Below are positions 1,525 to 52,251 of a DNA stretch of 64,000 nucleotides, one piece after another. The stretch spans positions 12,118-76,117 of the forward strand of contig JBCCHV010000005.1 of NCBI GenBank assembly GCA_039028635.1, given 5' to 3'. This DNA comes from Acidobacteriota bacterium (lineage in GTDB: Bacteria; Acidobacteriota; Thermoanaerobaculia; Multivoradales; JBCCEF01). Position 1 is the first letter of the stretch; every line of letters begins with the position of its first letter. The notes under the pieces are model-generated. The model searched no databases, was not told where the DNA came from, and saw only the letters and a list, made by a program, of their open reading frames with translations. The position numbers and the translations under genes were made by a program.

Positions 1525-1546
1525 GTTCGAACGGACGGAGAAAACC

Positions 1547-2347: not shown

Positions 2348-2591
2348 GGAACCTGTCCGTTCTCGCCCGATGTCGCGAGCCGGCCCTCAACAGGTGTCAA
2401 CCAACTGATAACCGCTGTATCTCCGGTGTCCGGACGCGATTTCCCGTCCTCGACGGACAGCCAGTCCGCCTGCGGCACCCTCTCGGCCCCACAGCCCCCT
2501 AAACCGCGCCTTGCGAACTTGGGGAGCAACCCAGGCTTGGGAGTAAGATCCACCTCCAAGGTCAGGATCCACGACCCCGGAGGTGAGGCGG

Positions 2592-3743: not shown

Positions 3744-6034
3744 CTACGACCCCTGCTCCGAAGGACTGGTTTCTCGCTCGGGGACAACAAGCTCCACCTC
3801 TCCTCCAGCGGGGAGGGTATCGCTAACGCAGGTCGGTTGCTCCTGGCGCCAATCCCTCCGGGTCGTCGCCGCAGCAAGGTAGTCCGCCTCGGTCATGACG
3901 CATGCGGTGTAAAGCCCTGGTGCCATCCTGGGAATTTCGAGGCTCTTGCTACCAAGCTGCCACGTCACACCATGGCCCCGAGACCATTGCCATAGCCTCT
4001 GCTGAGACAGTGGGATGCCATCCTGGAGAATCACGACCTGGCCTCGCTCGCGGCTCGAGGAGGAGTCAACCTCTCCTTCGAAGCGGATGAAGAGACGTCC
4101 CCATTCTGCGGAGACCTCGAACGTCAGGTCTTCGGAAAAGGGAACGCTCCTGGCCTGAAGGCCGTGCCCGGGCGCACTGACGATCGCGTGGAGTTGTTGG
4201 GCATCGGCTCGCAGGCGAGCGTCGAAGTAGCCGGATAGATCTGTCCTGGCCGAGTCTCCAGACGCGGCGAGGAATGGTTGGACCACTTCGAGATCAACAG
4301 AGGCTCCCGGCACGGGACTACCCTTCTCGGAAACCACGCGGCCACGAATTGCCTGCTTGCTGTGCAGCACGAGCTCCGCCGGCCCCCAGGGAGTCCCCTC
4401 GACGACCGAGGCCATCACGCTGTCACTCGACCTCTCGTCATCGCCAGCGCCCTTCCGGGCGGCCACCGAAACCGCCCCCTCGCGAAACGCCCGGAGCCGG
4501 AACTCACCATCCTCCTCGGAGCGCCCTGAGGCCCTCGCGTCCGAACCCCGCAAGAACACCTGCGCTTCCGCCACAGGGCGTCCTTGTTCATCGACCACCC
4601 GACCGAAGACCTCCGTCTCCGGAAGCACAATGTCGAGATCCGCCTCGCCCTTCGAATCTGCGCGAACCTCGACCCGGTCGCGCAGCCCCTCCAACTCCAA
4701 CTCCGGAACGTCGACCTCGATATCCCACCATCCATCCTCTGGAAGTACCCCGATGAAAGCCCCGTCTCGGTCTGTCGGCGTGTGGGCGCGAGAGATCCCG
4801 GACCGACCACCAAACCAGATCGTGCCTTCCACGGGCTCTTCGCCATAGAGCAACTCCCCGCGGACTATCACGAGATCGAGAGTGACCGCGATACGAGGGT
4901 CGGCAGCGGTCACCATGACATCGGGTCGCCCAAACATCTGGTTCCCCAGGGAGTCCTGCACCTTGACGAGGAATGTTCCTGGCGCTTGGTTCTCGAGCAC
5001 CGTGCGCCCTTGAGCCAAGGCTCCACGAAACGCGGAGTCTCCGTCGGCTGAGCCAGAGAGGTCCGACATGCGAGAGACAGAAACCTGCCACGGCTTGCCG
5101 CGCCAGTCCTCCGGGGGTTCGACCAGGACCTCGATTTCGAGAGGGCGGTAGAGAGTGATGGGCGCCTTCAGACGTACTTCGGCCGAGTCCCAAACTTCCA
5201 GCGGAAACTCTCTCGCCTCCACGAATCCTGGATGAGCAACCTCCAGAACGTAGGCTCCGGAAGCGAGTCCTGCAAGCTGGAAGAATCCATCCCCCTGCAA
5301 GGGCACCTCGAGCACCGGCTTCGCCAGCCGTTGCGCCAACCCAGTATCGGCTCCACGAGGAACGAAGGGGAAGAGCCTAGCGGAACCTTCCGAGGTTAGA
5401 AGTTCGCCGTCAATCGACTCGGCTCGACCAACCAGAGATCCCCCTTCTTTCAAGTCGAAGGGGGCAAAATGCACCACCGAGGCTGGCTTGACCTCGACCC
5501 CGAACTCATACATCGGGACGTAGCCCGCAACCCGAAACTCGGCATCTAGCAATCCCGCGGGCACGTCACAGGACCACTTATCCTCCTCCACGGGGCAGCG
5601 CGCTCGAGAGGTAGGAACCGCACCCGATCGCAGGGGCTCCGGCGAGGAGAAGCGGATTTCGAGACTGCTCGGTAGTTTGCCCTTGCCGTCGAGCAGTTTC
5701 AGCGTGCCCGAGAGTCGCCCCGCCGGCCGAGTGAGAAAGTGGAGCTGCGTGTCTCCCGAGGCCTCGAAGGACTGCCTGCGACTTCGAGACAGGCCTCCCA
5801 TGAGGTTTCCGCCGGAAGCACCAAGGAGGCCAACCCCAAGTCATCGAACGCGACCTCGCGAGTCTCAGGTTCCTCGCCAAGAAGCCGAAGCTGCACCAAT
5901 CCGAGGGCCTCGGCCTCACCCTCAACACGCTCACCTGACAGAGAGACGTGAACGTCCGAGGCTTCCATGGACGGCACCGCCAGCCCCAGGAGCAGAAACG
6001 GGGCAGCCAGGCCGACAGCGAGCGATCTCGTCAT
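3744..6034 (-). CDS. Large secreted protein with repeated carboxypeptidase-regulatory-like beta-sandwich domains; the N-terminal signal-peptide segment is in another frame (frameshift or pseudogene?)
   Basis: 685-aa ORF 3744-5801 with repeated GxVVDxxGxPVxxAxV motifs (FGRVVDEQGRPVAEAQVFL, IRGRVVSEKGSPVPGASVDL). ORF 5699-6043 in a different frame encodes MTRSLAVGLAAPFLLLGLAVPSMEA, a signal peptide. The ATG at 6034 overlaps the upstream gene's stop codon (ATGA). Confidence 0.5.
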
Positions 6035-7974: not shown

Positions 7975-10900
7975 CTAATTTTCCAGGAACTTTATCTTTC
8001 TGACTTTCAAGCCTGGAAGGTCCAAGTTGATTGTGGAATGACCTGATGCAGACCTGGACTTAGCTCGATAGCTGACAGTTGCGCCCGGAGCCAGCTTCAC
8101 CGTAACTCGCCCTGGCCCCCGAGAGACGACAGAGCCACCTCTCGACAGTCGCCCGAACAACTTCTGTGCAGCCTTCTCACCACCCGGCAAAAATCTAATC
8201 TTCTTACTGGATCCGGCCACCCCAATGAGCCGCCCTGCCGGCCTTACGATCGCGGTAGCCCTGGAGATCGTTGCCTGCTCCGCCAAAGTAAACCCTGTAA
8301 CGAGCGCGCCAGCAGCCACCGCCGAGGGAGCCTCCACGGCAGCATCTCTAAAGAGCTGCAGCCTCTCGGACGGTAAGGCGCTGGAGTCGATGCCCTCGGC
8401 CTCGAGCTCTGCTGCCATGGAGCCGGGATCCGGTTGATCCGCTTCGTCCTCCGGATTTTCGTCGCCCTCGAGGTACTCGCCAAGGGCTGCCTGAAAGAAC
8501 AAGGCAATCTCATCGACTGCACGCTGGAAGGCATTTCGCCCCTGCTTCGAAGCCGGCAGCAGGCCATCGGGATCAACCCACTTGAGGGGGTTATTGAGAG
8601 CGTAGGTGTAGCGATTCAGGGACTGGGGGTTCTTGAGGCTCCCTCCCACGGGGTCGACACTGAGAAACCTGCCGTTGAGGGGTGAGCAGTACCTGGCGTG
8701 CATGTAGTCAAGGTCGTCATCTTGGCCAGGTGTTCCGTGATGATCGCGTTCGTGGCCGGTGAATTTGAGCCTCTCCTCGAGGTGGACGGTGCCGAGCTCT
8801 TCTCCGAAGGGAAAGAAGACCGAGAGACGCGGAATCTGTCCATTGGCATTGACCGAGAGCCGTGGCGTTCCGAGGTGGTCGAGAAGCTGGAGGCGGACTC
8901 CCTCCTGCGGCCGCCACGAGGCCAGCAGACTGCCTTCACGGTAAATGTAGTCCTCGTGGTGGGTCCAGGCCCCGCTGGAGCCGCCGACGTTGGTCCATGT
9001 GCGGAGTACCTGCCCATCGAGGTCGCGCACGGTCCAGGTTTCCTCGATCGGCTGAACGGCATTGCGGAAGGTACAGATGCGCTCGTCATCGGCGGTGTAC
9101 AGGTAGAGATCGTCCTGAGTGCCGTTGTTGCGGCGAGCGCGCTTCATCTTGGAGAGAGAGTCCCACTCGTAAGCGAAGCCCTGAGTGCCGACACCCCAGT
9201 TGAGCTGATTGCCCGCCGCGTCGTAGCCGGCCCCGGTCAAGCGATTGGTGACCTCACTGGCCACCGGGGTCCGAGTCGAGGTCGAGCCGCCCGAGGTGGT
9301 GGTGATCGATCCGAGATTGCCGAAACGGTCGTAACCGTAAGTCTGCCGATCGCCTCCCCCGAGCACCCCTTCCACCAAACGACTGACCGAGTCGTAGCGA
9401 TAGCGCTCGTCACCGAGGGCCTTGACATTGCCGGCACCGTCATACTGATAACTCAGCCCATCGGCGGAAGCTCCAGGTGCGAGCGCAAGCCCGGGATCGG
9501 CCAGACCGTTGAAACGTACGCCCACCGACCGCGGTCGCCGCATCCCCCAGGGATCGCGGGCCTGAAAATAGGTGATGCCGCCGCTATGGGCCACTTCCTG
9601 AAGCATGCCGTTGTCATGATACGAAACCGTCGCCTGCACGCCCGGGTAGCCGCCGACAGCGGTCAGGCTCCCCTGGACGTAGGTGGAGGTGGCGGCACGC
9701 ACGGAGTCGGAGCCGGCGCAGGGGAAAAAGGTGCAGCGGGGAAAGGTCACCTGACGCAAGTTGCCGAGATCGTCCCAGGTCCACCCTTGAGTGAAGGACT
9801 GCAGCGAAGACAGGGCCGTGCGCCGAGAGCTGACCCGCCCGCCGAGCCCACCATAGGCGTAGGTCTCGGTCACCGAGACGTCGATCTCGGGACCATTCGG
9901 GTTCCAGGGAGGCACGAACCAGTTGTGACGGGTGGCCGTCTTGGTCTTGCCCTTCGAACGGTCTAGCGAGTTGGTGCCGATTCCATAGGTGAATGTCTTG
10001 AGGAATCGCCGTAGTCCGGCGCTCTCTCGAATCGACAGCAGACGCTCGGCGCGGTCGAAGTCGAACTCGAGATCGAAGGCACCGGCCGCCGCCCCCACCC
10101 ACTGCCGGTGGGCATGGCCGCGCGCATCGTACTCCCGGTAGAAAAGCGTGCCGTTGCCGGAAAAGCCCAGCTCGGGATGGGTTTCCGAAAGGAGAAATCC
10201 TCGACCGTCATACTGAAAGCGGCGCACCTGGTGACCACCGGTGCGGGGCGTCCGCGCTTCGATCAGGCGATCGGCGGCATCGTAGAAGTAGCTCGTCGTG
10301 ACCTCCGCCCCAGCGTTCCCGGAGGGCTCTTCCACCGCCGTCAAACGCCCATACCGGTCGTAGGTCTCGGTGGTGGTCGAAGGCGTCTCGGCGCCATTCG
10401 TCCCGGTGGCTACCTCGACCGTACGGGCCAAGGTTCGGATGCCCTGATAGGTGAACCGAATCGGATTGCCGTCCGGCAAGGTGAGGGTCCGCGGCCTGCC
10501 GAAGGGGTCATAGCCGGAGTACACGGTTCGAGGATAGGACGATCCGTGGTCACTGGTTCGGCGGGAGGACTGGGACCGCTTCCAACCGTTCGGGTAGTAG
10601 GCCGTCTCGACCTCGCTCCAAACACCATCGGGCAGAAGCTCGCGGTCCTGCCAGACGCGTCCCCAGGGATCGAAAAAGGTATGGCGCTGGGCCAGGGTGG
10701 CACCGCTCGTCTGCCCATTGGGCCGATGGATCACCTTCACCTGGCCAGCCCGGCTCGGCAGGGATCGCAGATAGTCGATCTCGATCCAGGCTCCCTGACC
10801 CGCCGTCGGCTGAATCGCCGTCAGCCGACCGAGAGCGTCATAGGAGTAGTCGGTTCGGACGCCTGCCGGATCCTTGGAATGCCGCACCAATCCGGTGGAG

Positions 10901-13002
10901 GCATCGATTCCCTGATCCAGCGTGAAGAAGTGCTCCGCCCCTGTCAGCGCACTGCCATTGCCCTTCCGATACTCGCTGCGTGAGCGCTGCCCGTGTTGAT
11001 ATTGATGCTTGATCCAGTAGACCGCTGCGGCCGGCACGCCGAGGCCACACACCGGATTGAAGACTCCCACCGATTGCAGATCGCCGCCGTAGAAGCGCTC
11101 CGCCGTCACCTTGCCGAAACTGTCTTTGTTGCGCACCACCACCACATCGTCAGTGCCACGAGTCGTTCCTGCGAGTTGGCGAGAGCGACGCAAGAAGCCC
11201 GTGCCGGCATCGAAGCAGTATTCGGCCTTGACCTCGGAAGCACCCTGCCTCACCGAGGTGTCCGTGAAGGTACCCAAAACCCAAGGGGAAGTGGTCGGCC
11301 AAGGGCTATAGCTGTGGCCTGGTAGGGGGTTGTTGCTGAAGGCGTCGTAGCTGTAAGTGCCGCGGCTCGGGTTGTAGGCCGAGGTCACCGTACGGGCCGG
11401 CCCCAGGGAGGACGAACCACCGGTGGTCACCACCCGGTAGTGGCCGAGGCCATCGAAATCGGAGGACGCGACGTCGGTGGTGCGATTGCCATCGGCCTCG
11501 TAGACCGTGCGTTGCCTTTCGAGACGGCGGTTGGAGTCGTACCAATCGCTGGTGTAGCGCACGTTGCCGAAGGGTTTGAGCTTGTCGCGGCCGTAGTTCA
11601 CGTAAATCGAGCGCCGCAGAGTGCCGCTACCGGCCCGGCCATCCCAGATCTCTTGCGACAGGAACCGGCCACCGTGAGACCTACCTCGCCGGTAGGGCAG
11701 GCCATACTCCCAGGCAGTCGGATCATTCGGAAACATAGGCTTCTCGGTGAAGTGGTGCACCGTGTCGTCTCCGGCCGGCGAGGTCACCGTGATCTGACGC
11801 CCGAAGTCGCCGTTGAGCTGGTTGCGGCTCTGGCGATAGGTCCAGGTGCAATCCTGAGTGCCGAGGTCGAAATCGAAACACTGTCCGTTGCTGTCGAGAA
11901 CCCGCTTGGTCTCGACCGCCAAGGTTTCTTGGTCGGCCAGACTTTCCGGCACGTGTGGGGCTCTCGAGAGCAAGGTGAAGTTCTGATAGGTCCACTCGAT
12001 CAGACCACGAGTCGGGGCCCGCAACTGCCGGATCGCCCCCGGCAAAGAAGCGATGGTCGTCCCGAGCTGATTGCAGGAGCTGTAATAACTCGGCATCTCC
12101 CAGGAGGAGCCGTCCGGGAGATCGATGCGGGTCAACAGGTCGACCATCGCGTTCGGCCCCGTCGGGTCGCTGTGACCGTCGGGATAGGGAATCTGATCGT
12201 CCTCGCAATGGCGCTCGATGGCCGTCTCCTGATAATGGAAGTTGTAAATCGCCCGAGAGCCACCAAAGGCCTGCAAGTTGACCGACTTCACCCGCCATTG
12301 CTGGGTCATCGGCGAACGCTCGAAGTCGACCGTATGCTCCCGGCCCAGCCGATCTTCCAGCTCCCAGTCTGAGCCTGCCAGGTCGACCTTCACCCAGTTG
12401 CCTTGGCGATCTTCCATCCGCGTCAGCCGCCAGCGGCCGTTGGCCTCGTGCTCGAAAGTTCGGATCGTGCCATCGGGAAACTCGACCCGACGGGTCACCC
12501 CTTGGGCACTCAGCCGAAGGTAGGAGTTGTCGCGGCTGTAGAGAAAACCGGTGCCGATAGTCTCCCCGACGTGAAGCGACTGGTAGAAAGCGCTCTCCGA
12601 GCCGTCCGCTCCGACAAAGCGCCAGGGGCCCGGGGCATAGGTGTAGTTGGGCGACAGCAAGGCCCCACCGAGCGACAGGGTCCAGCCCAGACCGGCATTG
12701 CTTTGCCGATTCGGATAGACCTCTGTCAATTCAAAGTCGCCGATTCGGCGGGTCTCCAGATCCCACACCTTGGCGTTGTAGGACAGCGTCAGGCCATAGG
12801 AGAAGCCGCCCGCCACCGGCGTTTCTGAGCCGATCGGCAAGGCCAGAATCAAGTTGCCGTTGAACAACGCCACGGAGTCGATGCCGGAGTAGTCGTAGAC
12901 CTTCTCCGCCGAAAAGCCTCGAGCCTCGATCGGATCCTGCTGGGCAAAGGCCAGCAGCGGGACCCACAATACGGCGAGGAGAACCAGCCACCGAAGCTTC
13001 AT
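7975..13002 (-). CDS. Rhs/YD-repeat polymorphic toxin with N-terminal Sec signal peptide (WapA-like) and a variable C-terminal toxin module
   Basis: 1675 aa. Signal peptide MKLRWLVLLAVLWVPLLAFAQQ. Many YD repeats (YDALGRLTAI, YDRYGRLTAV, YDAADRLIEA). Rhs core end ...PxxxxDPDGL (WVDPDGLLPAS) at about 8552-8596. About 190 aa of C-terminal domain in lower-GC DNA. Confidence 0.9.
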   Translation of the reverse strand: MKLRWLVLLAVLWVPLLAFAQQDPIEARGFSAEKVYDYSGIDSVALFNGNLILALPIGSETPVAGGFSYGLTLSYNAKVWDLETRRIGDFELTEVYPNRQSNAGLGWTLSLGGALLSPNYTYAPGPWRFVGADGSESAFYQSLHVGETIGTGFLYSRDNSYLRLSAQGVTRRVEFPDGTIRTFEHEANGRWRLTRMEDRQGNWVKVDLAGSDWELEDRLGREHTVDFERSPMTQQWRVKSVNLQAFGGSRAIYNFHYQETAIERHCEDDQIPYPDGHSDPTGPNAMVDLLTRIDLPDGSSWEMPSYYSSCNQLGTTIASLPGAIRQLRAPTRGLIEWTYQNFTLLSRAPHVPESLADQETLAVETKRVLDSNGQCFDFDLGTQDCTWTYRQSRNQLNGDFGRQITVTSPAGDDTVHHFTEKPMFPNDPTAWEYGLPYRRGRSHGGRFLSQEIWDGRAGSGTLRRSIYVNYGRDKLKPFGNVRYTSDWYDSNRRLERQRTVYEADGNRTTDVASSDFDGLGHYRVVTTGGSSSLGPARTVTSAYNPSRGTYSYDAFSNNPLPGHSYSPWPTTSPWVLGTFTDTSVRQGASEVKAEYCFDAGTGFLRRSRQLAGTTRGTDDVVVVRNKDSFGKVTAERFYGGDLQSVGVFNPVCGLGVPAAAVYWIKHQYQHGQRSRSEYRKGNGSALTGAEHFFTLDQGIDASTGLVRHSKDPAGVRTDYSYDALGRLTAIQPTAGQGAWIEIDYLRSLPSRAGQVKVIHRPNGQTSGATLAQRHTFFDPWGRVWQDRELLPDGVWSEVETAYYPNGWKRSQSSRRTSDHGSSYPRTVYSGYDPFGRPRTLTLPDGNPIRFTYQGIRTLARTVEVATGTNGAETPSTTTETYDRYGRLTAVEEPSGNAGAEVTTSYFYDAADRLIEARTPRTGGHQVRRFQYDGRGFLLSETHPELGFSGNGTLFYREYDARGHAHRQWVGAAAGAFDLEFDFDRAERLLSIRESAGLRRFLKTFTYGIGTNSLDRSKGKTKTATRHNWFVPPWNPNGPEIDVSVTETYAYGGLGGRVSSRRTALSSLQSFTQGWTWDDLGNLRQVTFPRCTFFPCAGSDSVRAATSTYVQGSLTAVGGYPGVQATVSYHDNGMLQEVAHSGGITYFQARDPWGMRRPRSVGVRFNGLADPGLALAPGASADGLSYQYDGAGNVKALGDERYRYDSVSRLVEGVLGGGDRQTYGYDRFGNLGSITTTSGGSTSTRTPVASEVTNRLTGAGYDAAGNQLNWGVGTQGFAYEWDSLSKMKRARRNNGTQDDLYLYTADDERICTFRNAVQPIEETWTVRDLDGQVLRTWTNVGGSSGAWTHHEDYIYREGSLLASWRPQEGVRLQLLDHLGTPRLSVNANGQIPRLSVFFPFGEELGTVHLEERLKFTGHERDHHGTPGQDDDLDYMHARYCSPLNGRFLSVDPVGGSLKNPQSLNRYTYALNNPLKWVDPDGLLPASKQGRNAFQRAVDEIALFFQAALGEYLEGDENPEDEADQPDPGSMAAELEAEGIDSSALPSERLQLFRDAAVEAPSAVAAGALVTGFTLAEQATISRATAIVRPAGRLIGVAGSSKKIRFLPGGEKAAQKLFGRLSRGGSVVSRGPGRVTVKLAPGATVSYRAKSRSASGHSTINLDLPGLKVRKIKFLEN

Positions 13003-43543: not shown

Positions 43544-43574
43544 CGCCGGTTGGCCGGCACTCGGCCAACCGGCG
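43544..43574 (+). terminator. Perfect 13-bp stem hairpin CGCCGGTTGGCCG-gcact-CGGCCAACCGGCG, 10 nt after the stop
   Basis: Read directly in sequence. No U-tract. Confidence 0.45.
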
Positions 43575-43657
43575 CACATCCCCTCCAGTCCGAACCTCCT
43601 CAGGCGCCCCTCGCGGCACCCTTGCGCTCCTCGGCGGCGTGGGGCAAACTGCCCGCC

Positions 43658-45868
43658 ATGACCGCCGCCGTGGACCTCGAGCGCGAGCTCAACCTGCAAC
43701 AGATCGAAGCCGTCACCCACGGCAACGGCCCCCAGCTCGTCATTGCCGGCGCCGGCTCCGGCAAGACCCGGGTGATCACCTATCGCATCGCCTGGCTGAT
43801 CGGCGAGCTCGGGGTCTCGCCCGGCGCCATCACCGCCGTCACCTTCACCAACAAGGCCGCCGCAGAGATGCGCGAGCGGGTGGAGGGGCTGGTCGACCAG
43901 TGGCCTCTCGAGACCTTCGTCGGCACCTTCCACCGCTGGGCCCTGATCCAGCTCCGGCGCTACGGCGAACGGGTCGGCTTGGCGCGCAACTTCGCCATCC
44001 TCGACACCTCGGACCAGCTCAATCTGATCAAGCAGGCGCTGCAGATCGAGGGCCTATCGGAGAAGTCCTTTCCGCCCCGCGGCGTGCTCGCCACCATCAG
44101 CAGCGCCAAGAACCGGCTGATCGACCCGGACGCCTTCGAGGACGCCGCCGACTCGTTCTTCGCCCGCCGCGTCGCCCCCTGCTACCGCCGCTACCAGGGG
44201 CTCCTCGCCAAGGCATCCGGCGTCGACTTCGACGACATGCTGTTCCTGGCGGTGCGCCTGATGGAGCAGGAGCCGGATGTCCTCGACCGGTTGCGTTACC
44301 GCGCCCAGTACCTGCTGGTGGACGAGTACCAGGACACCAACCAGGCCCAGCAACGGCTGATCGAGGTTCTCGCCGGCGAGCCGGCCAACCTGACGGCGGT
44401 GGGCGACGAGGATCAGGGCATTTACCGTTGGCGCGGCGCCGACATCGCCAACATCCTCGATTTCGAACGCCACTTCCCCGGCACCGAGGTGCGCAAGCTG
44501 GAGCAGAACTACCGCTCCACCCAGACCATCCTCGACGCCTCCGGCGCCCTGGTGGCGAACAACCAGGGCCGCCGCGGCAAGCGGCTGTGGACCGACTCCG
44601 GCGAAGGCGAGAACATCGTCGTCTTCAAAGCCACCGACGAGCAGGAAGAAGCGCGCTGGCTGGTTCAGGGCCTGAGCGACCTGCGCTCCAAAGTGCCGCT
44701 TTCGGAGATGGCCATTCTGGTGCGCACCAACGCCCAGACGCGTTCGATCGAAGATGAGCTGCTGCGGCGCGAGATCCCCTACATCCTGGTCGGCGGCACG
44801 CGCTTCTACGAGCGCGCCGAGATCAAGGATCTGGTGGCCTACCTGCGGCTGCTGCGCAACCCGCAGGATTCCTACTCCTTGGAGCGCATCCTCAACCGGC
44901 CGGCGCGCGGCATCGGCAAGGCCACCCAGGAAATGCTGCGGCAGGAGGCGGACTCCCTCGGGCAGCCCCTGTGGGACGTCATCTTCCAGCGCCAGACCCA
45001 GAATCTGCCGACCCGCGCCGCCACCGCCGTCGGCAAGTTTCGCGACCTGATCGCCGGCCTGATGGCGGCGGCCGAAGAGCTGCCCTTGCCGGCCCTCCTC
45101 GACCGCCTGCTGGAAGACACCCGTTTCCTCGACATGTACCGCCCAGACCATCCCGAGGACGCCGGCCGCATCGAGAACATTCGCGAGTTCCTGTCGGCGG
45201 CACAGGAGTTCACCGAGTCGCGAGCCTTCAACTCCGACGACGAGGACCTGCTGACTCCCTTCCTCGACCACGTCGCGCTGGTCGCCGACCTCGACGACTG
45301 GGAGGTCGAGCGCGGCATCTCGGTGATGACGCTGCACAGCGCCAAGGGCCTCGAATTCACCGCCGTGGTGGTCGCCGGCCTGGAAGACGGCCTGCTGCCG
45401 CACTTCAACTCCCAGGGCACCCGTGACGACCTCGAAGAAGAGCGCCGGCTGCTCTACGTCGGCATGACCCGGGCCCGCCGCCACCTCTCCCTCACCAACT
45501 GCCGCCGGCGGCGCATCGCCGGTCGCTACCAGGACCAGCGCGAGTCCCCCTTCCTCGCCGAGATCCCGGAGGAGCTGCTCGACATCCAGCAGAGCCCCAG
45601 CCTGTTCACGCCCGGCGGCTCGGCGGACAGCGTTTCTTCCTTCTTCGGTCGCGCTCCCCGCACCACTGAAGAGCCTTCCCTGGACGAGTCCTTCTCCCAG
45701 GAAAGCCGCCAAATCCGCCGCGGCAGCCGGGTGCGCCACCCCACCCTCGGCGAAGGCACCGTGCTCTCCCTCGAAGGCCAGGGTGACCACACCAAGCTGA
45801 CCGTCTACTTTCCCAAGGCCGGCAAGCGCAAGCTGGTCGCCCGCTACGCCAACCTCGAGCTGTTGTAG
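43658..45868 (+). CDS. uvrD: ATP-dependent DNA helicase UvrD/PcrA
   Basis: Walker A GAGSGKT. Motifs through the C-terminal Tudor-like tail GTVLSLEGQGDHTKLTVYFPKAGKRKL. Confidence 0.9.
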   Translation: MTAAVDLERELNLQQIEAVTHGNGPQLVIAGAGSGKTRVITYRIAWLIGELGVSPGAITAVTFTNKAAAEMRERVEGLVDQWPLETFVGTFHRWALIQLRRYGERVGLARNFAILDTSDQLNLIKQALQIEGLSEKSFPPRGVLATISSAKNRLIDPDAFEDAADSFFARRVAPCYRRYQGLLAKASGVDFDDMLFLAVRLMEQEPDVLDRLRYRAQYLLVDEYQDTNQAQQRLIEVLAGEPANLTAVGDEDQGIYRWRGADIANILDFERHFPGTEVRKLEQNYRSTQTILDASGALVANNQGRRGKRLWTDSGEGENIVVFKATDEQEEARWLVQGLSDLRSKVPLSEMAILVRTNAQTRSIEDELLRREIPYILVGGTRFYERAEIKDLVAYLRLLRNPQDSYSLERILNRPARGIGKATQEMLRQEADSLGQPLWDVIFQRQTQNLPTRAATAVGKFRDLIAGLMAAAEELPLPALLDRLLEDTRFLDMYRPDHPEDAGRIENIREFLSAAQEFTESRAFNSDDEDLLTPFLDHVALVADLDDWEVERGISVMTLHSAKGLEFTAVVVAGLEDGLLPHFNSQGTRDDLEEERRLLYVGMTRARRHLSLTNCRRRRIAGRYQDQRESPFLAEIPEELLDIQQSPSLFTPGGSADSVSSFFGRAPRTTEEPSLDESFSQESRQIRRGSRVRHPTLGEGTVLSLEGQGDHTKLTVYFPKAGKRKLVARYANLELL

Positions 45869-46065
45869 GGATCCGGGCTCGCCGAGCCCGCGAGCCCACG
45901 GTCGAGTTTCGCGGCGGTCGCGACGGCCGACGCCGTGATCGCACGGCGGCCGCAGCAGACCACCAGTTCGAGGTGCGGGCGCTTCACTTTGCGTCCTTTC
46001 CGGAAAAGACCCGACTCCCTGGGGTGAACGGCATCAAACGATGCCTCACCGCAAGGAGACAGACC

Positions 46066-46275
46066 ATGGGACATAACAGCGAGAGCAAAGGCCGCACCTT
46101 CATCCTGGAGAACGCCCGCATCTACCTGCCGGGCTCCCTCCCCGACGAGGCACCCAAGACCGCCACCCAGGCTCCCGCCAGCGGCTGCTGTGGGTCCGGG
46201 CCGGAACCGACGACCGGAGCCAAAGCCACCGGTTGTGATACCCAGTCCACCGCTGCGCAAGCGACCTGTTGCTAA
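46066..46275 (+). CDS. Small Cys-rich peptide (70 aa) ending ...ATCC; candidate precursor or thiol/metal-binding peptide
   Basis: Strong AAGGAGA RBS 7 nt before the ATG. MGHNSESKGRTFILENARIYLPGSLPDE (leader-like) followed by APKTATQAPASGCCGSGPEPTTGAKATGCDTQSTAAQATCC. Confidence 0.45.
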   Translation: MGHNSESKGRTFILENARIYLPGSLPDEAPKTATQAPASGCCGSGPEPTTGAKATGCDTQSTAAQATCC

Positions 46276-46343
46276 CCCCCAACCGGCGCCGGTCGCCAAT
46301 GCGAACCGGCGCCCTGGCGACTCCGAAAGAAGGAGAGTCTTCG

Positions 46344-47642
46344 ATGACCGACGTCAAGAAACTTCCCATCGCCATCGTCGGGGCCGGGCCGGTCGGCCTG
46401 GCCGCGGCGGCCAATCTGGTCGAACGCGGGCTGCAGCCGCTGATTCTGGAAGCCGGCTCCTCCATCGCCGCCAGTATTCGCGCCTGGGGGCACGTCCAGC
46501 TCTTCACGCCCTGGGCCTATCTCATCGATCCGCCGAGCCGCCGTCTGCTCGAAGCGCACAGCGACTGGATCGCTCCGGACAATGACCGCCTACCCTACGG
46601 CCACGAGCTGGTGGAGCAGTTCTTCGAGCCCCTCGCCGGCCTTCCCGTCATCGCCGAGGCGATCCACCTGAACCACGAGGTGACCTCGATCGCGAAGGAC
46701 GGCCACGACCGGATGAAGAACGGCGAACGCGCCGCGGCGCCGTTCTTGATCGTCGCCCAAACGCCGCATGGCCCGCGTCGCTATTGGGCACAGGCCGTGA
46801 TCGATGCCTCGGGCACCTGGACGACCCCGAATCCCCTCGGCGCCGGCGGTGTCGAAGCCGACGGCGAAGGCGAGTTTCAGCAGCACATCCGATACGGCAT
46901 GCCCGACATCCTGGGCGCCGAGCGCCAGCGCTACGCCGGCCGGCGGACGCTCGTGGTGGGCTCCGGCCACTCGGCGATCGGCTCGGTCCTCGGCCTCGCC
47001 GAGCTCGCCGCAGAAGACGGCGAGACTCAGGTCGCCTGGGCCGTTCGCAAGCAGGACCCGCGCAAGCTCTGGGGTGGCGGCGAATCGGACGAGATCGCGG
47101 AGCGCGGCCGGCTCGGCTCGCGGGTCGCCGCAGCGGTCCAGTCCGGCGCGGTGAGCTTACTCACCGGTATCTCCATCGCAGCCCTGCGAGAGCACCCGGA
47201 CGGCATCGAGGTGGTCGATGTCGAGGGCAGCGGTCAGGTGGTGGTCGACGAGCTGATCGTCGCCGCCGGCTCCCGACCGGACCTGAAGATGCTGCGGGAG
47301 CTTCGCCTGGAGCTCGATGTCGCCACCGAAGCCGCCAAGCCGCTCGGCCCGATGATCGACCCGAACTACCATAGCTGTGGAACCGTCAAGCCGCACGGTT
47401 TCGAAGAGCTCCAGCATCCGGAAGAAGGCTTCTTCATCGCCGGCATGAAGAGCTACGGACGAGCTCCGACGTTCCTCCTGCGCACCGGCTACGAACAGGT
47501 TCGCTCGATCGTCGCTCACCTCGCCGGCGACGACGAGTCGGCCCGCCAAATCGAGCTCATTCTTCCGGAGACCGGGGTCTGCTCGACCAACCTGGCCTTC
47601 GACGACTCGAGCGCGGCGATCCCGGCGGGCGAATGCTGCTGA
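46344..47642 (+). CDS. FAD/NAD(P)-binding oxidoreductase (FMO/YpdA-like, two-dinucleotide-motif type) with a C-terminal Cys-Cys
   Basis: IAIVGAGPVGLAAAAN and TLVVGSGHSAIG motifs. No CxxxxC disulfide centre. The protein ends ...IPAGECC. GAAGGAGAG RBS. Confidence 0.75.
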   Translation: MTDVKKLPIAIVGAGPVGLAAAANLVERGLQPLILEAGSSIAASIRAWGHVQLFTPWAYLIDPPSRRLLEAHSDWIAPDNDRLPYGHELVEQFFEPLAGLPVIAEAIHLNHEVTSIAKDGHDRMKNGERAAAPFLIVAQTPHGPRRYWAQAVIDASGTWTTPNPLGAGGVEADGEGEFQQHIRYGMPDILGAERQRYAGRRTLVVGSGHSAIGSVLGLAELAAEDGETQVAWAVRKQDPRKLWGGGESDEIAERGRLGSRVAAAVQSGAVSLLTGISIAALREHPDGIEVVDVEGSGQVVVDELIVAAGSRPDLKMLRELRLELDVATEAAKPLGPMIDPNYHSCGTVKPHGFEELQHPEEGFFIAGMKSYGRAPTFLLRTGYEQVRSIVAHLAGDDESARQIELILPETGVCSTNLAFDDSSAAIPAGECC

Positions 47643-48847
47643 TCTCGGGGGGCCGAGAGCTTCGCCGCCTGACGGCGAGGCTCTGCCTGATCGAGCTCGT
47701 AGCCTGGGGAGTTCTCTACTACAGCTTTGCGGTCTACCTGGCCGCGATGCAGGACGAGCTCGGCTGGTCCTCCGCCACCTTCGCCGGCGGCTTCTCCCTG
47801 GCGCTGTTGGTCGCCGGTCTCGCGGCGCCAATCGTCGGTCGCTGGATCGATCGTCACGGCGGCCGCCGCCTGATGGTCGCCGGCGCCTTGGCAGGAGGTG
47901 TCGGCGTCGCCGTCTGGAGCATCGCCCACTCACCGCCGGTGTACTTCGCGGGCTGGATTCTGATCGGCGCCGGCATGGCGGGAACCCTCTACACTCCCGC
48001 CTTCGCCACCATCGTCCGCTCCCACCCCGGAGAGAGTCGCCACGCCATCCTGGTCGTCACCCTGATCGGCGCGCTGGCCTCGACCCTCTTCATGCCCCTC
48101 GCCAGCGGCCTCGGAGAGAGCCTGGGCTGGCGGGGAGGGCTGCTCGTCCTCGCCGCGGTGATGGTCGCGGTGATCACCCCTCTGGCCCTCGGCCTGCCCG
48201 CACCCGCTGCCGACAAAGCGGTCAACACCGCGGCACCGGGCCCCAGCGGTGAGGTACCGGGCCGCTTCCGGCTGCTGGCCTCGTCTCTGATGATCGCCGA
48301 CGCCGCCGGCGTCGCCGTCCAGGCCTACCTGGTGCTCTTCCTGGTCGAGCGTGGGCTGCCCCTTGCCGCCGCAGCCGGCATCGCCGGTCTCGCCGGAGCA
48401 GCCAAGATCGCAGGCCGCCTGGCCACCGCGGCGGGCCACAGAATCTCTGCGCTGGCGGTGATGCGCCTGTCGCTCTTGCTGACTGCGGCCGTGCTGCTCC
48501 TCCCTCTCCTGCAAGCCGGCACAGCCGCGGCCATCGCCATGGTCCTCGGCATCGGCGCGACGACCGGTGCCCGCACCATTCTTCGTCCTTTGGTGGTGCT
48601 GGAGCTCTTCGGTCGCCGCGACTTCGGCAGGAGCAGCGGCCTGCTACAGCTCTGCACCGCCCTCACCAAGGCGGCCGGTCCGATCGCCTTCGGCCTCCTG
48701 CTCACCGCCCTGGGCTGGAGTTGGGCCTGGTCGCTGCTCGCCCTCCTGCTGGTCGCCAGCGCCGCCGCCATGCACGGTCTTCGGCCAACGCCAGAGCCCA
48801 TGCTCGAACCCCGCGGCGCCCTCGCCCCAGGAGACCTCTCGCCATGA
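47633..48847 (+). CDS. MFS transporter (12 TM)
   Basis: Typical hydrophobic periodicity and the MFS motif GRWIDRHGGRR. Overlaps both neighbouring genes. Confidence 0.8.
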   Translation: MLLISGGRELRRLTARLCLIELVAWGVLYYSFAVYLAAMQDELGWSSATFAGGFSLALLVAGLAAPIVGRWIDRHGGRRLMVAGALAGGVGVAVWSIAHSPPVYFAGWILIGAGMAGTLYTPAFATIVRSHPGESRHAILVVTLIGALASTLFMPLASGLGESLGWRGGLLVLAAVMVAVITPLALGLPAPAADKAVNTAAPGPSGEVPGRFRLLASSLMIADAAGVAVQAYLVLFLVERGLPLAAAAGIAGLAGAAKIAGRLATAAGHRISALAVMRLSLLLTAAVLLLPLLQAGTAAAIAMVLGIGATTGARTILRPLVVLELFGRRDFGRSSGLLQLCTALTKAAGPIAFGLLLTALGWSWAWSLLALLLVASAAAMHGLRPTPEPMLEPRGALAPGDLSP

Positions 48848-49932
48848 ACCGGTGGCTCCGCAACGCCCTCTACCTGATCGCGGCCGATTATCAGCGCTCT
48901 TCCGATACCCACCTGGTGCGGGTCGAGCCGCCTCCAGCCAACGAGGTGAGCCTCTATCTGAAGGATGAGTCGACTCATCCCACCGGCAGCCTCAAGCATC
49001 GTCTGGCCCGGTCACTGTTCCTCTATGGACTCTGCAACGGCCACATCCGCGAGGGTACGACCATCGTCGAGTCGTCATCGGGCAACACCGCTGTCTCCGA
49101 GGCCTACTTCGCGCAGCTTCTCGGTCTACCGTTCGTCGCGGTCGTCCCACAGGGCACTTCGCAGAAGAAAATCGACCAGATCGCCTTCTATGGCGGCAAA
49201 TGCCACTTCGTGCCGGGACACCAGATCTATGCCGAGGCGGCGCGGCTCGCCGCCGAGCTCGACGGCCACTACCTGGACCAGTTCACCTACGCCGAGCGGG
49301 CGACCGACTGGCGCGGCAACAACAACATTGCCGAGTCGATCTTCGAGCAGATGAAGTGCGAGCCCTCCCCGACCCCCAGCTGGATCGTGGTCAGCGCCGG
49401 AACCGGCGGTACGGCCGCCACCATTGGGCGCTACATCCGCTACAAGTCCTTCTCGACCAGGCTCTGCGTCGCGGACCCCTCGAACTCCGTTTTCTTCGAC
49501 TACTTCAGGACCGGCGACCAGAAGCTGGTGTCCGACCAGACCTCCAACGTCGAGGGCATCGGTCGGCCGCGCGTCGAACCATCCTTCAACTGCGCTGTCA
49601 TCGACAAGATGATCAAGGTGCCCGATGCTGCCGCCTACGCAACCCTGCGGTTCCTCGAAGGCATCCTCGGCCGACGCTGTGGCGGCTCGACCGGGACCAA
49701 CGCCTACGCGGCCCTACAGCTCATCGCGAGCTTCGAGGGAGGAGAGCTACCGGCCAGCGTCGTGTCGATGATCTGTGACGGCGGGGATCGTTACTCGGAC
49801 ACCTACTACGACGATGCCTGGCTAGAGCGGCACGGATTCGACCTCGCCCCCTACACTGAGCAGCTCGAGACTTTCTGGGAGACCGGCGTTTGGAACACCC
49901 TGGCGGGCGAAGAGCACCGCTGCATCGGCTGA
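48844..49932 (+). CDS. PLP-dependent cysteine synthase family enzyme (CysK/CBS fold)
   Basis: PLP-lysine context HPTGSLKHR. Gly-rich loop SAGTGGT. ATGA overlap with the MFS gene. Confidence 0.8.
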   Translation: MNRWLRNALYLIAADYQRSSDTHLVRVEPPPANEVSLYLKDESTHPTGSLKHRLARSLFLYGLCNGHIREGTTIVESSSGNTAVSEAYFAQLLGLPFVAVVPQGTSQKKIDQIAFYGGKCHFVPGHQIYAEAARLAAELDGHYLDQFTYAERATDWRGNNNIAESIFEQMKCEPSPTPSWIVVSAGTGGTAATIGRYIRYKSFSTRLCVADPSNSVFFDYFRTGDQKLVSDQTSNVEGIGRPRVEPSFNCAVIDKMIKVPDAAAYATLRFLEGILGRRCGGSTGTNAYAALQLIASFEGGELPASVVSMICDGGDRYSDTYYDDAWLERHGFDLAPYTEQLETFWETGVWNTLAGEEHRCIG

Positions 49933-50076
49933 TCGGGCAGCCGCCGCGACGGGAGAGGAGGCCCAAGAACCGCGCTTCTTGGGCCGGAGCGGGACGCGCA
50001 GTCAGGGGCGCTCGGCCCGGGACCCGCAGTCAGGCGCGCGCAGCCCCTCTCGGAAAAAACCGCTAGCTGCGCTGGA

Positions 50077-50108: not shown

Positions 50109-50648
50109 CTAGCGGTCGCTGCGCAGCAGCGAGTAGAGATGATTGTCGACCCGGCCTTCGGGCAGGCGGAAGTAGCTGCGCAGCCGCCCCTCGTGCCGGA
50201 AGCCGAGCTTTTCGAGGACCCGCCGGGAGGCTTCGTTCTCGACCGCACAGCGTGCTTCGATGCGCTCGAGGACGGTGCCGGCGAAGAGATCTTCGAGCAG
50301 CAAACGGAGCGCGACGGTCATCACGCCGCGGCCCTGGAACGACGTCGACAAGGCGTAGCCGACCTCCGCCAAGCCGTGCTCCCAGTTGCTAACCACCAGG
50401 GTGATCCAGCCAGCCGGCTCGTCGTCCGACTGCACGATCCACTGAAATTTCTCACCCCGGGAGCGGTAGAGGTCGCTCATGCGATGGCTCGCCACGTCGG
50501 TGCGCAGTTGACCGACGGTGAGGTCGTTGAGGGGCTGGTAGCGACGCACCGAGTCCTCGGCCCGCCAGCGGCGCAGGAACTCGGCATCGCGCGGAACGGC
50601 CGGCCGCAGGCTGACGCGAGGGTTCGGGGGACTGACCGGCAGGGACAT
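50109..50648 (-). CDS. GNAT-family N-acetyltransferase (RimJ/RimL-like)
   Basis: Acetyl-CoA-binding context QGRGVMTVALRLL. Confidence 0.8.
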   Translation of the reverse strand: MSLPVSPPNPRVSLRPAVPRDAEFLRRWRAEDSVRRYQPLNDLTVGQLRTDVASHRMSDLYRSRGEKFQWIVQSDDEPAGWITLVVSNWEHGLAEVGYALSTSFQGRGVMTVALRLLLEDLFAGTVLERIEARCAVENEASRRVLEKLGFRHEGRLRSYFRLPEGRVDNHLYSLLRSDR

Positions 50649-50727: not shown

Positions 50728-52251
50728 CTACTCACGGACCGTCAGGCCGAGCATCTGAGCCTCCTGCGTCGACGGTGGGGGCGAGCCACCTCCGCGAGAG
50801 AAACCCTCGAGCAGCGAAAGCAGAACGATGTAGGAGTAGCCCTGCAGGAAGAGGAAGAGAAACGGCAGGGAAGCCCACATTCCGTCCCACGCCGCAAAGG
50901 CGAAACAGGCGATGAAATAAAGGGCGAAGACGACCTCGAGAAGCAGGGTCATGCTGCGACCGGCACGGTAGCGCTTCGGTTTCCAGCCGTCGGCACGCTC
51001 GACGATCGAGAATTTGGGAGTGCGCACGAACTCGCCGCCCCGCTGGCGAAAACCGGACAGCACCGCCGCCGAATTGCTCAGCGAAAGGCCGATACCCAGA
51101 CCCATCAAGGCCGGCAGCCAGCGCAGCGAGCGGCGCCAGTTTCGCCCGCCGGCGATCTGGCTGGCCGAGTAAAAGACCAGCACCGAGACGGTGGCGGCGA
51201 GGAACAGCGGCAGATCGATCAGCAGCAGAAGCTCGATCGAGGAGCCGCGGCGCAGGACCATGGCGGGAAAGACCAGCAGCGCCAGCACCACCATCAACAG
51301 ATAGCTGACGTTGTTGGTCAGGTGGACGGCGGCCTCGGCCTTGACTCGCCAAGGCAGATCGGCAGCGAAGATGCGGCGCAGCAGCTTGCGGCCGGTCTGG
51401 ATCGAGCCCTTGGCCCAGCGGTACTGCTGGCTCTTGAAGCCGTTGATCTCGACCGGTAGCTCCGCCGGCACCAGCAGGTCCGGCAGATACAGGAACCGCC
51501 AGCCGGCCATTTGCGAGCGATAGGAGAGGTCGAGGTCTTCGGTCAGGGTGTCGTGCTGCCAGCCTCCGGCCTGCTCGATGGCCTGGCGCCGCCAGATGCC
51601 GGCGGTGCCGTTGAAGTTGAAGAAGCAGCCGCTGCGATTGCGCGCGGTGTGCTCGATCACGAAGTGGCCATCGAGAAAGATCGCCTGGATCCGGGTGAGC
51701 AAAGAGAACTCCCGATTGAGGTGATCCCAGCGCGCCTGAACCATGCCGATCCCGGGGTCCGAGAAGTAGGGCACGGTGCGGCGCAGAAAGTCCTTGGAAG
51801 GCAGGAAGTCGGCATCGAAGACGGCGACCAGAGAGGCCTTCGTCTGCTTCAGGCCGGCCTCGAGTGCGCCGGCCTTGAAGCCGGTGCGATCCTCGCGGTG
51901 GAGGTGGCGGATCGGCACCCCGAGGTCGGCCTGCCGGGCCACCGCATCGGCCACGATCTGGCGCGTCTCGTCGGTGGAGTCATCGAGTACCTGAATCTCC
52001 AGCCGCTCCCGCGGATAGTCGATCTCGCAGACCGCATCGATCAGGCGACGGGCGACATACATCTCGTTGTAGAGTGGCAACTGGACCGTCACCAAGGGCC
52101 ATTCCTCGGGCGGCGCCGGCTCGACGGCGACCCGTTTCCGGGAGCGCCAGTAGAGGACCACCAGCACCATTCGGTGGATGCCGAAGATGGCGAGGATCCC
52201 CAAGATCCCGTAATACATCCCAAGCAGTGTCGATGCCATCCCTGAGCTCAT
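50728..52251 (-). CDS. Processive family-2 glycosyltransferase (cellulose-synthase/NodC-like) with C-terminal TM domain
   Basis: DDSTDET, DAD, and the Q..RW motif (QQYRWAKG). Confidence 0.8.

Follow-up and report, generated by a model that had tools for sequence, protein, structure and literature searches.

A compact operon of four genes, all on the + strand, lies in a 64-kb stretch of DNA from an Acidobacteriota bacterium (assembly GCA_039028635.1, contig JBCCHV010000005.1, positions 12,118 to 76,117; hereafter the window, 64,000 nucleotides (nt) in length). The genes encode a cysteine-rich protein of 69 amino acids (aa), a flavoprotein that ends in Cys-Cys, a major facilitator superfamily (MFS) transporter and an enzyme dependent on pyridoxal phosphate (PLP). 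Judged from its gene neighbourhoods, the pair of flavoprotein and MFS transporter recurs widely as a module of arsenic-resistance (ars) loci across many phyla. The first-pass annotation of this DNA, made from its letters alone, had recognised no known pathway in this combination of genes; the recurrence of the pair in ars loci supplies a precedent. On balance, we read the operon as a diverged, marine-clade version of this module, probably of the ArsV/ArsK kind, that would serve the detoxification of trivalent metalloids or organoarsenicals. The small cysteine-rich protein is a real partner of the flavoprotein.

Association with arsenic-resistance loci

We compared 104 loci from many phyla that harbor members of the flavoprotein family (numbered L001 to L104 below) with reference ArsR, ArsC, ACR3, MIP, TrxB, MFS and Cds1 proteins. 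A scan of contigs with the single protein retrieved 9 loci, and a scan of metagenomes with an alignment was far more productive. In the counts across 101 loci, ArsR is encoded on the same strand and at most 600 nt upstream in 28 of the 86 loci with enough upstream sequence and divergently in 7 (hence ArsR in 35 of the 86 loci of the wider family), and a PadR gene takes this position in 3. Downstream of the flavoprotein, 40 of 70 loci have an MFS gene on the + strand no more than 700 nt away. Of the 42 loci flanked by 3 kb or more on each side, 25 carry one or several ars markers (ArsR, ArsC, ACR3 or MIP); ArsC is found in 18 and ACR3 in 14 of these well-flanked loci.

Plasmids of several genera carry the family in the orders arsC-trxB-flavoprotein-arsC-LMWP-MFS (Arthrobacter), arsR-flavoprotein-MFS (Hydrogenophaga) and arsR//flavoprotein beside arsR-acr3 and arsC (Streptomyces). 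Rhodococcus pREL1 has the order arsR//flavoprotein-MFS-ArsO-like, and S. liliifuscus the order arsR-GNAT//flavoprotein-ArsI. A plasmid of Ensifer adhaerens harbors an ArsN-like GNAT-arsR-flavoprotein-arsK cluster beside aioA and pst. Its transporter is named ArsK by the NCBI Prokaryotic Genome Annotation Pipeline (PGAP) through an NCBI equivalog model, and the flavoprotein encoded upstream of this arsK, WP_218685966.1, is 49% identical, over the full length, to the flavoprotein of the window. In Rosistilla carotiformis (L011) a true ACR3 (370 bits, cut-off 282.8) is encoded directly upstream of the flavoprotein.

Several members are joined to genes of organoarsenical metabolism. In L036 the flavoprotein continues in frame, via a long Cys-rich linker (...SCCGS...), into the N-terminus of the arsenite methyltransferase ArsM; this fusion comes from a metagenome and is interrupted by the end of the contig. 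An ArsM gene lies directly upstream in L056, and L023, L046 and L080 have genes for ArsN-like GNATs upstream. These ties with ArsM, ArsI and ArsN suggest organoarsenicals as candidate substrates. In L033, L065, L081 and L095 the gene directly upstream on the same strand codes for a MarR protein with vicinal cysteines. This matches the published MarR_ars-arsV arrangement, in which genes for Cys-containing MarR_ars regulators precede arsV (bioRxiv 10.1101/2021.08.12.456183).

The flavoprotein and its cysteines

The flavoprotein is 100% identical to the NCBI protein P0001, annotated as 'FAD-dependent oxidoreductase' in an Acidobacteriota metagenome-assembled genome, and matches the Pfam families Pyr_redox_3 and Pyr_redox_2. 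It has a FAD motif GAGPVG at residues 13-18 and an NAD(P)H motif GSGHSA at 206-211, and the window flavoprotein contains no CxxxxC; both points had been read correctly in the first-pass annotation. The protein contains exactly four cysteines, namely Cys345 (in HSCG), Cys413 (in TGVCS) and the final pair Cys431 and Cys432, so that the sequence ends in ECC. All four are invariant in an alignment of 53 sequences (A1). Since A1 was picked mostly from sequences ending in CC, such tails were also counted in unselected sets. A CC follows the TGVC motif in 92 of the 118 top database homologues, and 86 end in CC with 0-2 residues beyond. Among the 96 complete tails in the loci (median length 47.5 residues), 90 contain at least one CC and 63 at least two. 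A C-terminal tail bearing Cys-Cys is thus a trait of the family, as is the vicinal pair at the end of the window protein that the first-pass annotation had singled out.

In many members the tail takes the recurrent form CCGGPAPxxxDACCxxDAxAKxxGKxGCGC, for which Pfam holds no family; it follows TGVCS in many soil members (L035, L054, L058, L059, L067, L083, L086, L089, L101 and others). Many members also carry Cys-rich N-terminal extensions, such as MSSCCSAKP... and MSEPSSCCAPSVQASCCEPS... The family is of very large size: each of the 8000 candidates that were scored gave a significant match, and two conserved motifs alone retrieve 589 relatives from Joint Genome Institute (JGI) metagenomes. 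Its annotation nowhere goes beyond 'FAD-dependent oxidoreductase' or 'NAD(P)-binding protein'.

An AlphaFold2 model of the window flavoprotein, built with 53 homologues, has a predicted local distance difference test score (pLDDT) of 82 and a predicted template modelling score (pTM) of 0.81. The best solved match found by Foldseek is Bdr/YpdA (7a76, target-normalised TM-score 0.80), followed by thioredoxin reductase (TrxR)-like ferredoxin-NADP reductases and class B flavin monooxygenases; the profile-sequence search agrees. The label given to the protein at first, YpdA-like or flavin-monooxygenase-like, therefore describes its fold class well. The parts of the model with low confidence are the HSCG loop (327-348), residues 370-375 and the tail (412-432).

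A detachable cysteine-rich arm protein

The first gene of the operon encodes the small protein MGHNSESKGRTFILENARIYLPGSLPDEAPKTATQAPASGCCGSGPEPTTGAKATGCDTQSTAAQATCC, in which 5 cysteines make up 7.2% of the residues, compared with 0.86% in six neighbouring proteins. It consists of a motif R-T-F-I-L-x5-I-Y-L-P, a low-complexity linker, and the elements GCCG, GC and a terminal CC. The first-pass annotation had described a Cys-rich open reading frame (ORF) of 70 aa with CC and GC motifs; the composition and the motifs stand, the length is 69 aa. NCBI lists the protein only as hypothetical protein AAF604_03515, and neither Pfam nor NCBIfam holds a family that matches it. A word-index search with the protein returned itself as the sole match. 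An exhaustive search of 1.84 billion representatives with a profile gave, besides the protein itself, a single true homologue, P0123, and a single false match of low complexity. With so few matches the small protein is poorly traceable by sequence search, and its homologues were traced by synteny and motif scanning instead.

The clade of the window comprises eleven further loci whose flavoproteins are at least 61% identical to that of the window. L104, found independently in a search begun from the small protein, also belongs to it. A homologous ORF of 66-74 aa lies directly 5' of the flavoprotein in L001, L010, L012, L017, L097, L099, L100 and L104, and was left uncalled by the annotators at L097 and L100. 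In Rosistilla and many other Planctomycetes the sequence of the small protein forms an N-terminal extension of a flavoprotein of 464-594 aa; fused proteins of this kind are P0058, P0059, P0074, P0080 and P0085. The small ORF is kept in 10 of the 11 testable clade loci, window included, and is absent in L098; L002 is truncated and falls outside the testable set. The aligned sequences share R-T-F-(I/V)-L-x5-(V/I)-Y-x-P, a GCCG about 20 residues on, then one more C or CC, and CC(G) at the end, with linkers between these elements free to vary. Every orthologous small ORF is preceded by GGAG at a distance of 6-9 nt.

The gene fusion, and the conservation of position and motif across DNA that otherwise cannot be aligned, identify the small ORF as a real gene. 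The comparison of orthologues proposed in the first-pass annotation, which asked about the CC terminus and the ORF upstream of it, thus finds both of them conserved. An AlphaFold2 model of the fused protein P0058 has a mean pLDDT of 82 for the block 11-20, inside the RRDFILATESLY motif, and about 30 or less for the remaining ~65 residues of the extension. The model weakly suggests that the extension consists of a motif for docking and, after it, a disordered arm. The RRxFIL motif of the fused Planctomycete proteins was also considered as a twin-arginine translocation (Tat) signal, which was rejected for lack of a hydrophobic h-region after the motif. Rosistilla carotiformis harbors in addition an 82-aa Cys-containing ORF (MNDTEHKACYGNIF...CRKCPEFESCYQL...) between the ACR3 gene and the fused flavoprotein; this ORF matches no family.

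The transporter and the PLP enzyme

The transporter belongs to the Pfam family MFS_1, and its best NCBIfam model is ArsK (NF033733), aligned over model positions 7-381 of 388. Over its full length it is 32% identical to the PGAP-named ArsK at the same position in E. adhaerens. Its reading frame overlaps that of the flavoprotein by 10 nt: the final codons of the flavoprotein, GAA-TGC-TGC-TGA, enclose the ATG of the transporter, which starts within GA-ATG-CTG-CTG-A. This overlap (xATGyTGyTGA, in which the MFS start lies within the x-Cys-Cys-stop codons) is kept in six clade members and argues for translational coupling of the two genes. ArsK has been described to export trivalent species.

The PLP enzyme matches the Pfam family PALP (E = 6e-51), and its nearest solved relatives are CBS, CysK and SbnA. 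Against the Cds1 model NF052478 it scores 538.4 bits, a near miss of the cut-off of 600, and its residues 4-351 align with model positions 2-354, i.e., over the full length. By sequence the enzyme is a Cds1-like L-cysteine desulfhydrase; it resembles Cds1 (Rv3684) in this full-length alignment and differs in that it stays under the equivalog cut-off, in that it has no link to the flavoprotein outside the closest relatives, and in that its activity is a prediction. A linked Cds1-like gene is found only in the window, L001, L002 and L097, and as a remnant in L010, all members being at least 76% identical. In L097 it lies 4 kb off, beside a thioredoxin gene. Because it is linked only in the closest relatives, the enzyme is not a core part of the system, although it is co-transcribed in the window; the first-pass annotation had included it in the combination. 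This desulfhydrase is an add-on specific to the lineage, and it may serve to provide sulfide or to control the level of cysteine.

Among close relatives, the ancestral array of small ORF, flavoprotein, MFS and Cds1 has decayed in different ways. In L001 the MFS gene is reduced to a 69-aa remnant and Cds1 is retained, in L010 Cds1 is a remnant and the MFS gene is retained, and in L002 both the MFS gene and the CC tail are lost.

A promoter-like element and SigZ-family sigma factors

In the window and the clade loci no ArsR gene lies directly upstream of the module, and neither ArsR nor MarR is encoded adjacent to it. Instead, the clade shares a bipartite element TGCGTCC-N15/16-CG(T/A)CT, located 40-80 nt 5' of the small ORF (in L098, of the flavoprotein) and resembling a promoter for sigma factors of the extracytoplasmic function (ECF) type. 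The copy in the window is the sole match to TGCGTCY-N13-17-CGWCT in the 64 kb. Further copies occur in clade loci and in two more distant members (Table 1), and variants are present in L099 and L012.

Genes for ECF sigma factors of the SigZ family are found near modules that have no ArsR, in L010, L097 and L100 as well as in L043, L030 and L076. The factors of L097 and L100 reach 194 and 182 bits, respectively, with the SigZ model TIGR02959 (cut-off 168.65), and these SigZ-family proteins carry a Cys-rich C-terminal extension CCxF..D..G.VI.C...C. The same element precedes the module and ECF genes adjacent to it, which suggests, at the level of sequence, an autoregulated ECF regulon. A second copy in L097, ~1.1 kb before the thioredoxin and Cds1-like genes, hints that both may belong to the same regulon though unlinked from the flavoprotein. 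No ECF sigma gene is present within the 64-kb window.

The Cys-rich tail is reminiscent of the CorE-like ECF factors, which are independent of anti-sigma factors and sense metals (Cu/Cd/Zn) (PMC6851896). By analogy, direct sensing of metal(loid)s may be a property of the Cys-tailed SigZ-family factors, in which the CxC motif defining CorE-like ECF44 is not evident.

Operon layout and flanking genes

The four genes form one tightly coupled, compact unit spanning 45990-49985, in agreement with the first-pass reading of four same-strand genes with shared boundaries: besides the 10-nt overlap of flavoprotein and MFS genes, an ATGA at 48844-48847 is common to the stop of the MFS gene and the start of the PLP-enzyme gene. 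Downstream of the last gene lies a hairpin of the sequence GGCCCAAGAA-CCGCGC-TTCTTGGGCC with a 6-nt loop, which is probably the 3' end of the transcription unit. It has no T tract and is therefore not listed by the terminator scan; the scan for sigma-70 promoters and terminators gave nothing useful.

The unit is flanked by a UvrD/PcrA-type helicase upstream and, in convergent orientation, by a RimJ/RimL-like GNAT and then a family-2 glycosyltransferase, all three read from their translations. None of them matches any of the ars query proteins, and the GNAT is without the IYNQGI motif of the ArsN-like GNATs beside other family members.

Table 1. Location of features in the window and in the compared loci; 'promoter element' stands for the ECF-type promoter-like element.
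Sequence	Feature	Position	Strand	Basis or remark
Window	ECF-type promoter-like element TGCGTCC-N15-CGACT	45990-46016	+	~50 nt 5' of small ORF
Window	Shine-Dalgarno sequence AAGGAG	46053-46058	+	7 nt 5' of small-ORF ATG; direct sequence reading
Window	69-aa Cys-rich protein	46066 (ATG)-46275 (stop)	+	no Pfam/NCBIfam family
Window	432-aa NAD(P)H/FAD flavoprotein	46344-47642	+	Pfam, alignment A1, AlphaFold2, Foldseek, neighbourhoods, E. adhaerens identity
Window	404-aa MFS transporter, ArsK-like	47633-48847	+	NCBIfam, identity to ArsK, position, overlap
Window	362-aa PLP enzyme, Cds1-like, CysK/CBS fold type	48844-49932	+	NF052478, PALP
Window	GC-rich perfect 10-bp hairpin, no T-run	49960-49985	+	28 nt 3' of last stop; direct sequence reading
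Window	UvrD/PcrA-type helicase	43550-45868	+	translation
Window	RimJ/RimL-like GNAT	50109-50648	-	translation
Window	family-2 glycosyltransferase	50728-52251	-	translation
L001	promoter element	267-293		clade locus
L010	promoter element	5621-5647		clade locus
L017	promoter element	4284-4310		clade locus
L097	promoter element	4629-4655		clade locus
L098	promoter element	4927-4953		clade locus
L100	promoter element	4712-4738		clade locus
L104	promoter element	4926-4952		clade locus
L023	promoter element	1248-1274		more distant member
L043	promoter element	1829-1855		more distant member
L100	promoter element	4455-4481	-	5' of ECF sigma gene
L030	promoter element	9677-9703	-	5' of ECF sigma gene
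L043	promoter element	4754-4780	+	5' of ECF sigma gene
L097	second promoter-motif copy	8802-8828	+	
L097	thioredoxin gene and Cds1-like PALP gene	9970-11299		
L010	SigZ-family ECF gene	8781-9407	-	near module without ArsR
L097	SigZ-family ECF gene	8073-8651	-	near module without ArsR
L100	SigZ-family ECF gene	3835-4386	-	near module without ArsR
L033	vicinal-Cys MarR gene	5398-5889		
L065	vicinal-Cys MarR gene	5435-5884		
L081	vicinal-Cys MarR gene	2304-2807		
L095	vicinal-Cys MarR gene	5176-5679		
L036	flavoprotein-ArsM fusion	897-contig end		
L011	82-aa Cys-containing ORF	5672-5920		Rosistilla carotiformis
L001	MFS remnant	1897-2103		
L010	Cds1 remnant	8588-8731		
L002	loss of MFS and CC tail	1424-1604		

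Relation to known systems

MerA, the mercuric reductase, catches its substrate with an N-terminal Cys module (NmerA) and a mobile C-terminal Cys pair, which pass it to internal cysteines near the flavin. The flavoprotein of the window resembles it in concept only, through an N-terminal Cys module, a C-terminal CC and internal cysteines. Its arm is an unstructured CC-rich peptide, that of MerA a ferredoxin-like GMTCxxC domain, and its substrate is likely a metalloid. Membership in MerA or the class I disulfide oxidoreductases was rejected: there is no CxxxxC, Pyr_redox_dim is not among the Pfam matches, the MerA model TIGR02053 is not among the NCBIfam matches listed for the protein, and only the C-terminal CC is common to both. 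ArsD binds trivalent metalloids with vicinal Cys pairs, including a C-terminal tail of the CCG...CC type, and hands them to an efflux system. The 69-aa protein shares the vicinal pairs and the CCG...CC tail; it differs in that a thioredoxin-like fold domain is absent and homology to ArsD is not detectable, and its partners are a flavoprotein and an MFS transporter, not the ArsA ATPase.

Bdr/YpdA (PDB 7a76, 7a7b, 7apr; target-normalised TM-score 0.80-0.82) is the closest solved fold, likewise an NADPH/FAD enzyme with two dinucleotide-binding domains and without CxxC. The sequence identity amounts to 16-18%, the window flavoprotein is ~100 residues longer, its invariant cysteines are others (HSCG, TGVCS), and it has a Cys-rich tail. 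The genomic context of the window family consists of ars genes, not of bacillithiol genes as for Bdr/YpdA. YpdA membership was rejected on the score of the top NCBIfam match, TIGR04018, at 38.6 bits (cut-off 339.9), and on the loop GAGPVG. ArsO (NF040505), a flavin monooxygenase of actinobacterial ars clusters, is an ars-associated NAD(P)H flavoprotein and belongs to the same broad superfamily. It represents a distinct family, to which the window protein does not belong (29.3 bits over a partial region, cut-off 425), and an ArsO-like gene co-occurs with the window family in the pREL1 operon.

In published accounts, ArsV is an NADPH-dependent flavin monooxygenase that oxidises methylarsenite (MAs(III)), trivalent roxarsone (Rox(III)) and Sb(III), ArsW is an exporter reported to act with ArsV in Paracoccus, and ArsV was first described in Ensifer adhaerens (reference cited in PMC11719878). 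Characterised ArsV proteins are those of E. adhaerens ST2, Paracoccus sp. SY and Achromobacter deleyi As-55 (CP074375.1). Members of the window family are likewise flavoproteins that have two dinucleotide-binding motifs and are encoded in ars loci. Family members have ArsR or a Cys-bearing MarR encoded upstream, an arrangement published for arsV too, and an overlapping MFS gene directly downstream whose counterpart in E. adhaerens, the species of ArsV, is a curated ArsK. We regard it as quite likely, from this gene context and the 49% identity to the E. adhaerens flavoprotein, that the family is ArsV. The copy in the window differs from the ArsV/ArsK arrangement in several respects: it has an ECF-type promoter in place of a nearby ars regulator, no ars genes beside it, an N-terminal Cys-rich arm that is encoded as a separate 69-aa protein, an appended Cds1-like gene, and an MFS transporter that is only 32% identical to ArsK and under the cut-off of its model.

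Proposed function and alternatives

In the mechanism that we propose, a thiophilic trivalent species (for example methylarsenite, another trivalent organoarsenical, Sb(III) or As(III)) would be caught by vicinal Cys pairs on flexible arms, namely the C-terminal Cys-Cys of the enzyme and the CCG/CC motifs of the 69-aa protein. The latter would dock onto the flavoprotein via its N-terminal RTFILx5YxP motif. The arms would pass the metalloid to the invariant Cys345 and Cys413, whose position by the flavin is a proposal. There the flavoprotein may oxidise it with NAD(P)H and O2 to the pentavalent form, which is far less reactive towards thiols, and the MFS transporter would export the arsenical. 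Oxidation is the most likely direction, as it is reported for ArsV and fits the links to ArsM, ArsI and ArsN. In the clade, transcription would start from the ECF-type promoter by means of a SigZ-family sigma factor whose Cys-rich tail would be the sensor, and this control would replace an ArsR or MarR repressor. The thiol- or metal-handling role offered in the first-pass annotation fits these data.

We also put forward, tentatively, a more far-reaching version. The 69-aa protein and the CC-tailed flavoprotein could form a hitherto undescribed metalloid relay, in which a disordered arm able to dock and bearing several vicinal-thiol sites would catch trivalent arsenicals or antimonite. The substrate would travel from the arm to the terminal CC and to Cys345/Cys413 for a flavin-dependent redox conversion, and the product would move straight on to the MFS transporter. 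A sigma factor would sense the same metalloid with its own Cys-rich tail, and in this lineage sulfide from Cds1 would bring in thio-arsenical chemistry. Such a relay would be analogous, not homologous, to NmerA-MerA.

Several observations weigh against an arsenic-related module of the ArsV/ArsK kind. The 64-kb window holds no ArsR, ArsC, ACR3 or ArsM gene, and ars markers are absent at 10 of the 11 clade loci, Rosistilla being the exception; the clade could therefore have shifted its substrate. The MFS transporter is ArsK-like with 149.3 bits, far below the equivalog cut-off of 400. Neither the MFS nor the Cds1 gene is obligatory, as each is lost in some relatives. No database homologue or cluster is named ArsV, and the use of this name for the family rests on gene context. 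Owing to the low pLDDT in these regions, the model does not fix the placement of Cys345 and Cys413 relative to the flavin. The closest fold is that of a disulfide reductase, Bdr/YpdA, so that a reductive role fits the structure as well as an oxidative one.

The last point leads to the first alternative, namely that the flavoprotein is a reductase acting on thiol-disulfide substrates or on pentavalent arsenicals, which is the main rival and which we consider unlikely. Electrons would pass from NAD(P)H to FAD and via Cys345/Cys413 to the terminal CC, as in the high-Mr TrxR, MerA or Bdr. Such a relay would serve either to hold the Cys-rich carrier in its reduced state or to convert As(V)/MAs(V) as ArsC does, the trivalent product then being held on vicinal thiols and delivered to the ArsK-like exporter in the manner of ArsD and ArsA. 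The structural and NCBIfam matches to Bdr/YpdA favor a reductase, the latter far under its cut-off, as do the similarity of the transporter to an exporter described for trivalent species, the resemblance of the CCG...CC tails to the As(III)-binding C-terminal Cys pairs of ArsD, and minimal arsR-flavoprotein-MFS operons without ArsC. Yet the catalytic cysteine of Bdr, located in the FAD-binding GGGPCG loop, is missing here (GAGPVG), and a second reductase would be redundant in the 18 of 42 well-flanked loci with ArsC nearby. The fusions with and adjacency to ArsM, ArsI and ArsN indicate detoxification of trivalent organoarsenicals, for which the known route is oxidation, and oxidation is also the published activity of ArsV.

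Somewhat less probable is that the marine clade has been re-purposed, either for another soft, thiophilic stressor (for example Hg, Cd, Cu, Sb, Te or Se) or for stress by reactive sulfur or electrophiles. Under the control of a SigZ/CorE-like ECF factor that senses metal or redox state, the Cys-rich protein would then be a thiol carrier of a sacrificial or buffering kind and Cds1 a source of sulfide for precipitation. This alternative draws on the lack of ars genes beside ten of the eleven clade loci (all but Rosistilla), on the switch to an ECF promoter and Cys-tailed SigZ-family factors that resemble CorE-like ECFs (PMC6851896), on members located in mixed heavy-metal islands with MerB and MerR (e.g., L103), and on the Cds1-like enzyme, which belongs to a family of H2S-producing L-cysteine desulfhydrases. 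It has to be set against the bona fide ACR3 directly upstream in the clade member Rosistilla, the identity of the catalytic-core invariants, including the four cysteines, with those of ars-linked members, the missing CxC motif of CorE-like ECF44 in the sigma factors, and the lack of a linked metal transporter or chaperone of another system.

Finally, the first-pass annotation had suggested a cassette resembling those for ribosomally synthesised and post-translationally modified peptides (RiPPs). We considered it in a form in which the flavoprotein and the PLP enzyme would modify a 69-aa precursor, made of a leader and a Cys/Thr-rich core, that the MFS transporter would export. This reading is highly improbable: the charged N-terminal region with its conserved motif, the variable Cys/Thr/Ser-rich tail and the adjoining exporter recall a leader and core only superficially, a covalent fusion joins the supposed precursor to the N-terminus of the flavoprotein in many Planctomycetes, a similar Cys-rich segment is the enzyme's own C-terminal tail throughout the family, the four proteins and their neighbours include no cyclodehydratase, LanB/C/M, radical SAM protein, protease or protein with a RiPP recognition element (RRE), the PLP enzyme is not conserved with the flavoprotein-MFS pair, and the wider family is embedded in ars operons.

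Significance for metalloid resistance

In the literature as available to us, three elements of the module have so far not been described: the Cys-rich arm protein that can be detached, the Cys-rich tails found throughout the family with the invariant Cys quartet, and the ECF/SigZ-type control of the clade. We note that gene callers often miss the small protein. In soil and marine metagenomes, genes for the cycling of arsenic and antimony would be better annotated once the family is tied to ars loci, and likewise once the Cys quartet, the Cys-rich arms and the detachable 69-aa arm protein are recognised. For metalloid flavoenzymes, the arms suggest a mechanism of substrate channelling, and the ECF-type promoter together with the Cys-tailed SigZ-family factors points to a possible form of metalloid sensing that does not involve ArsR.

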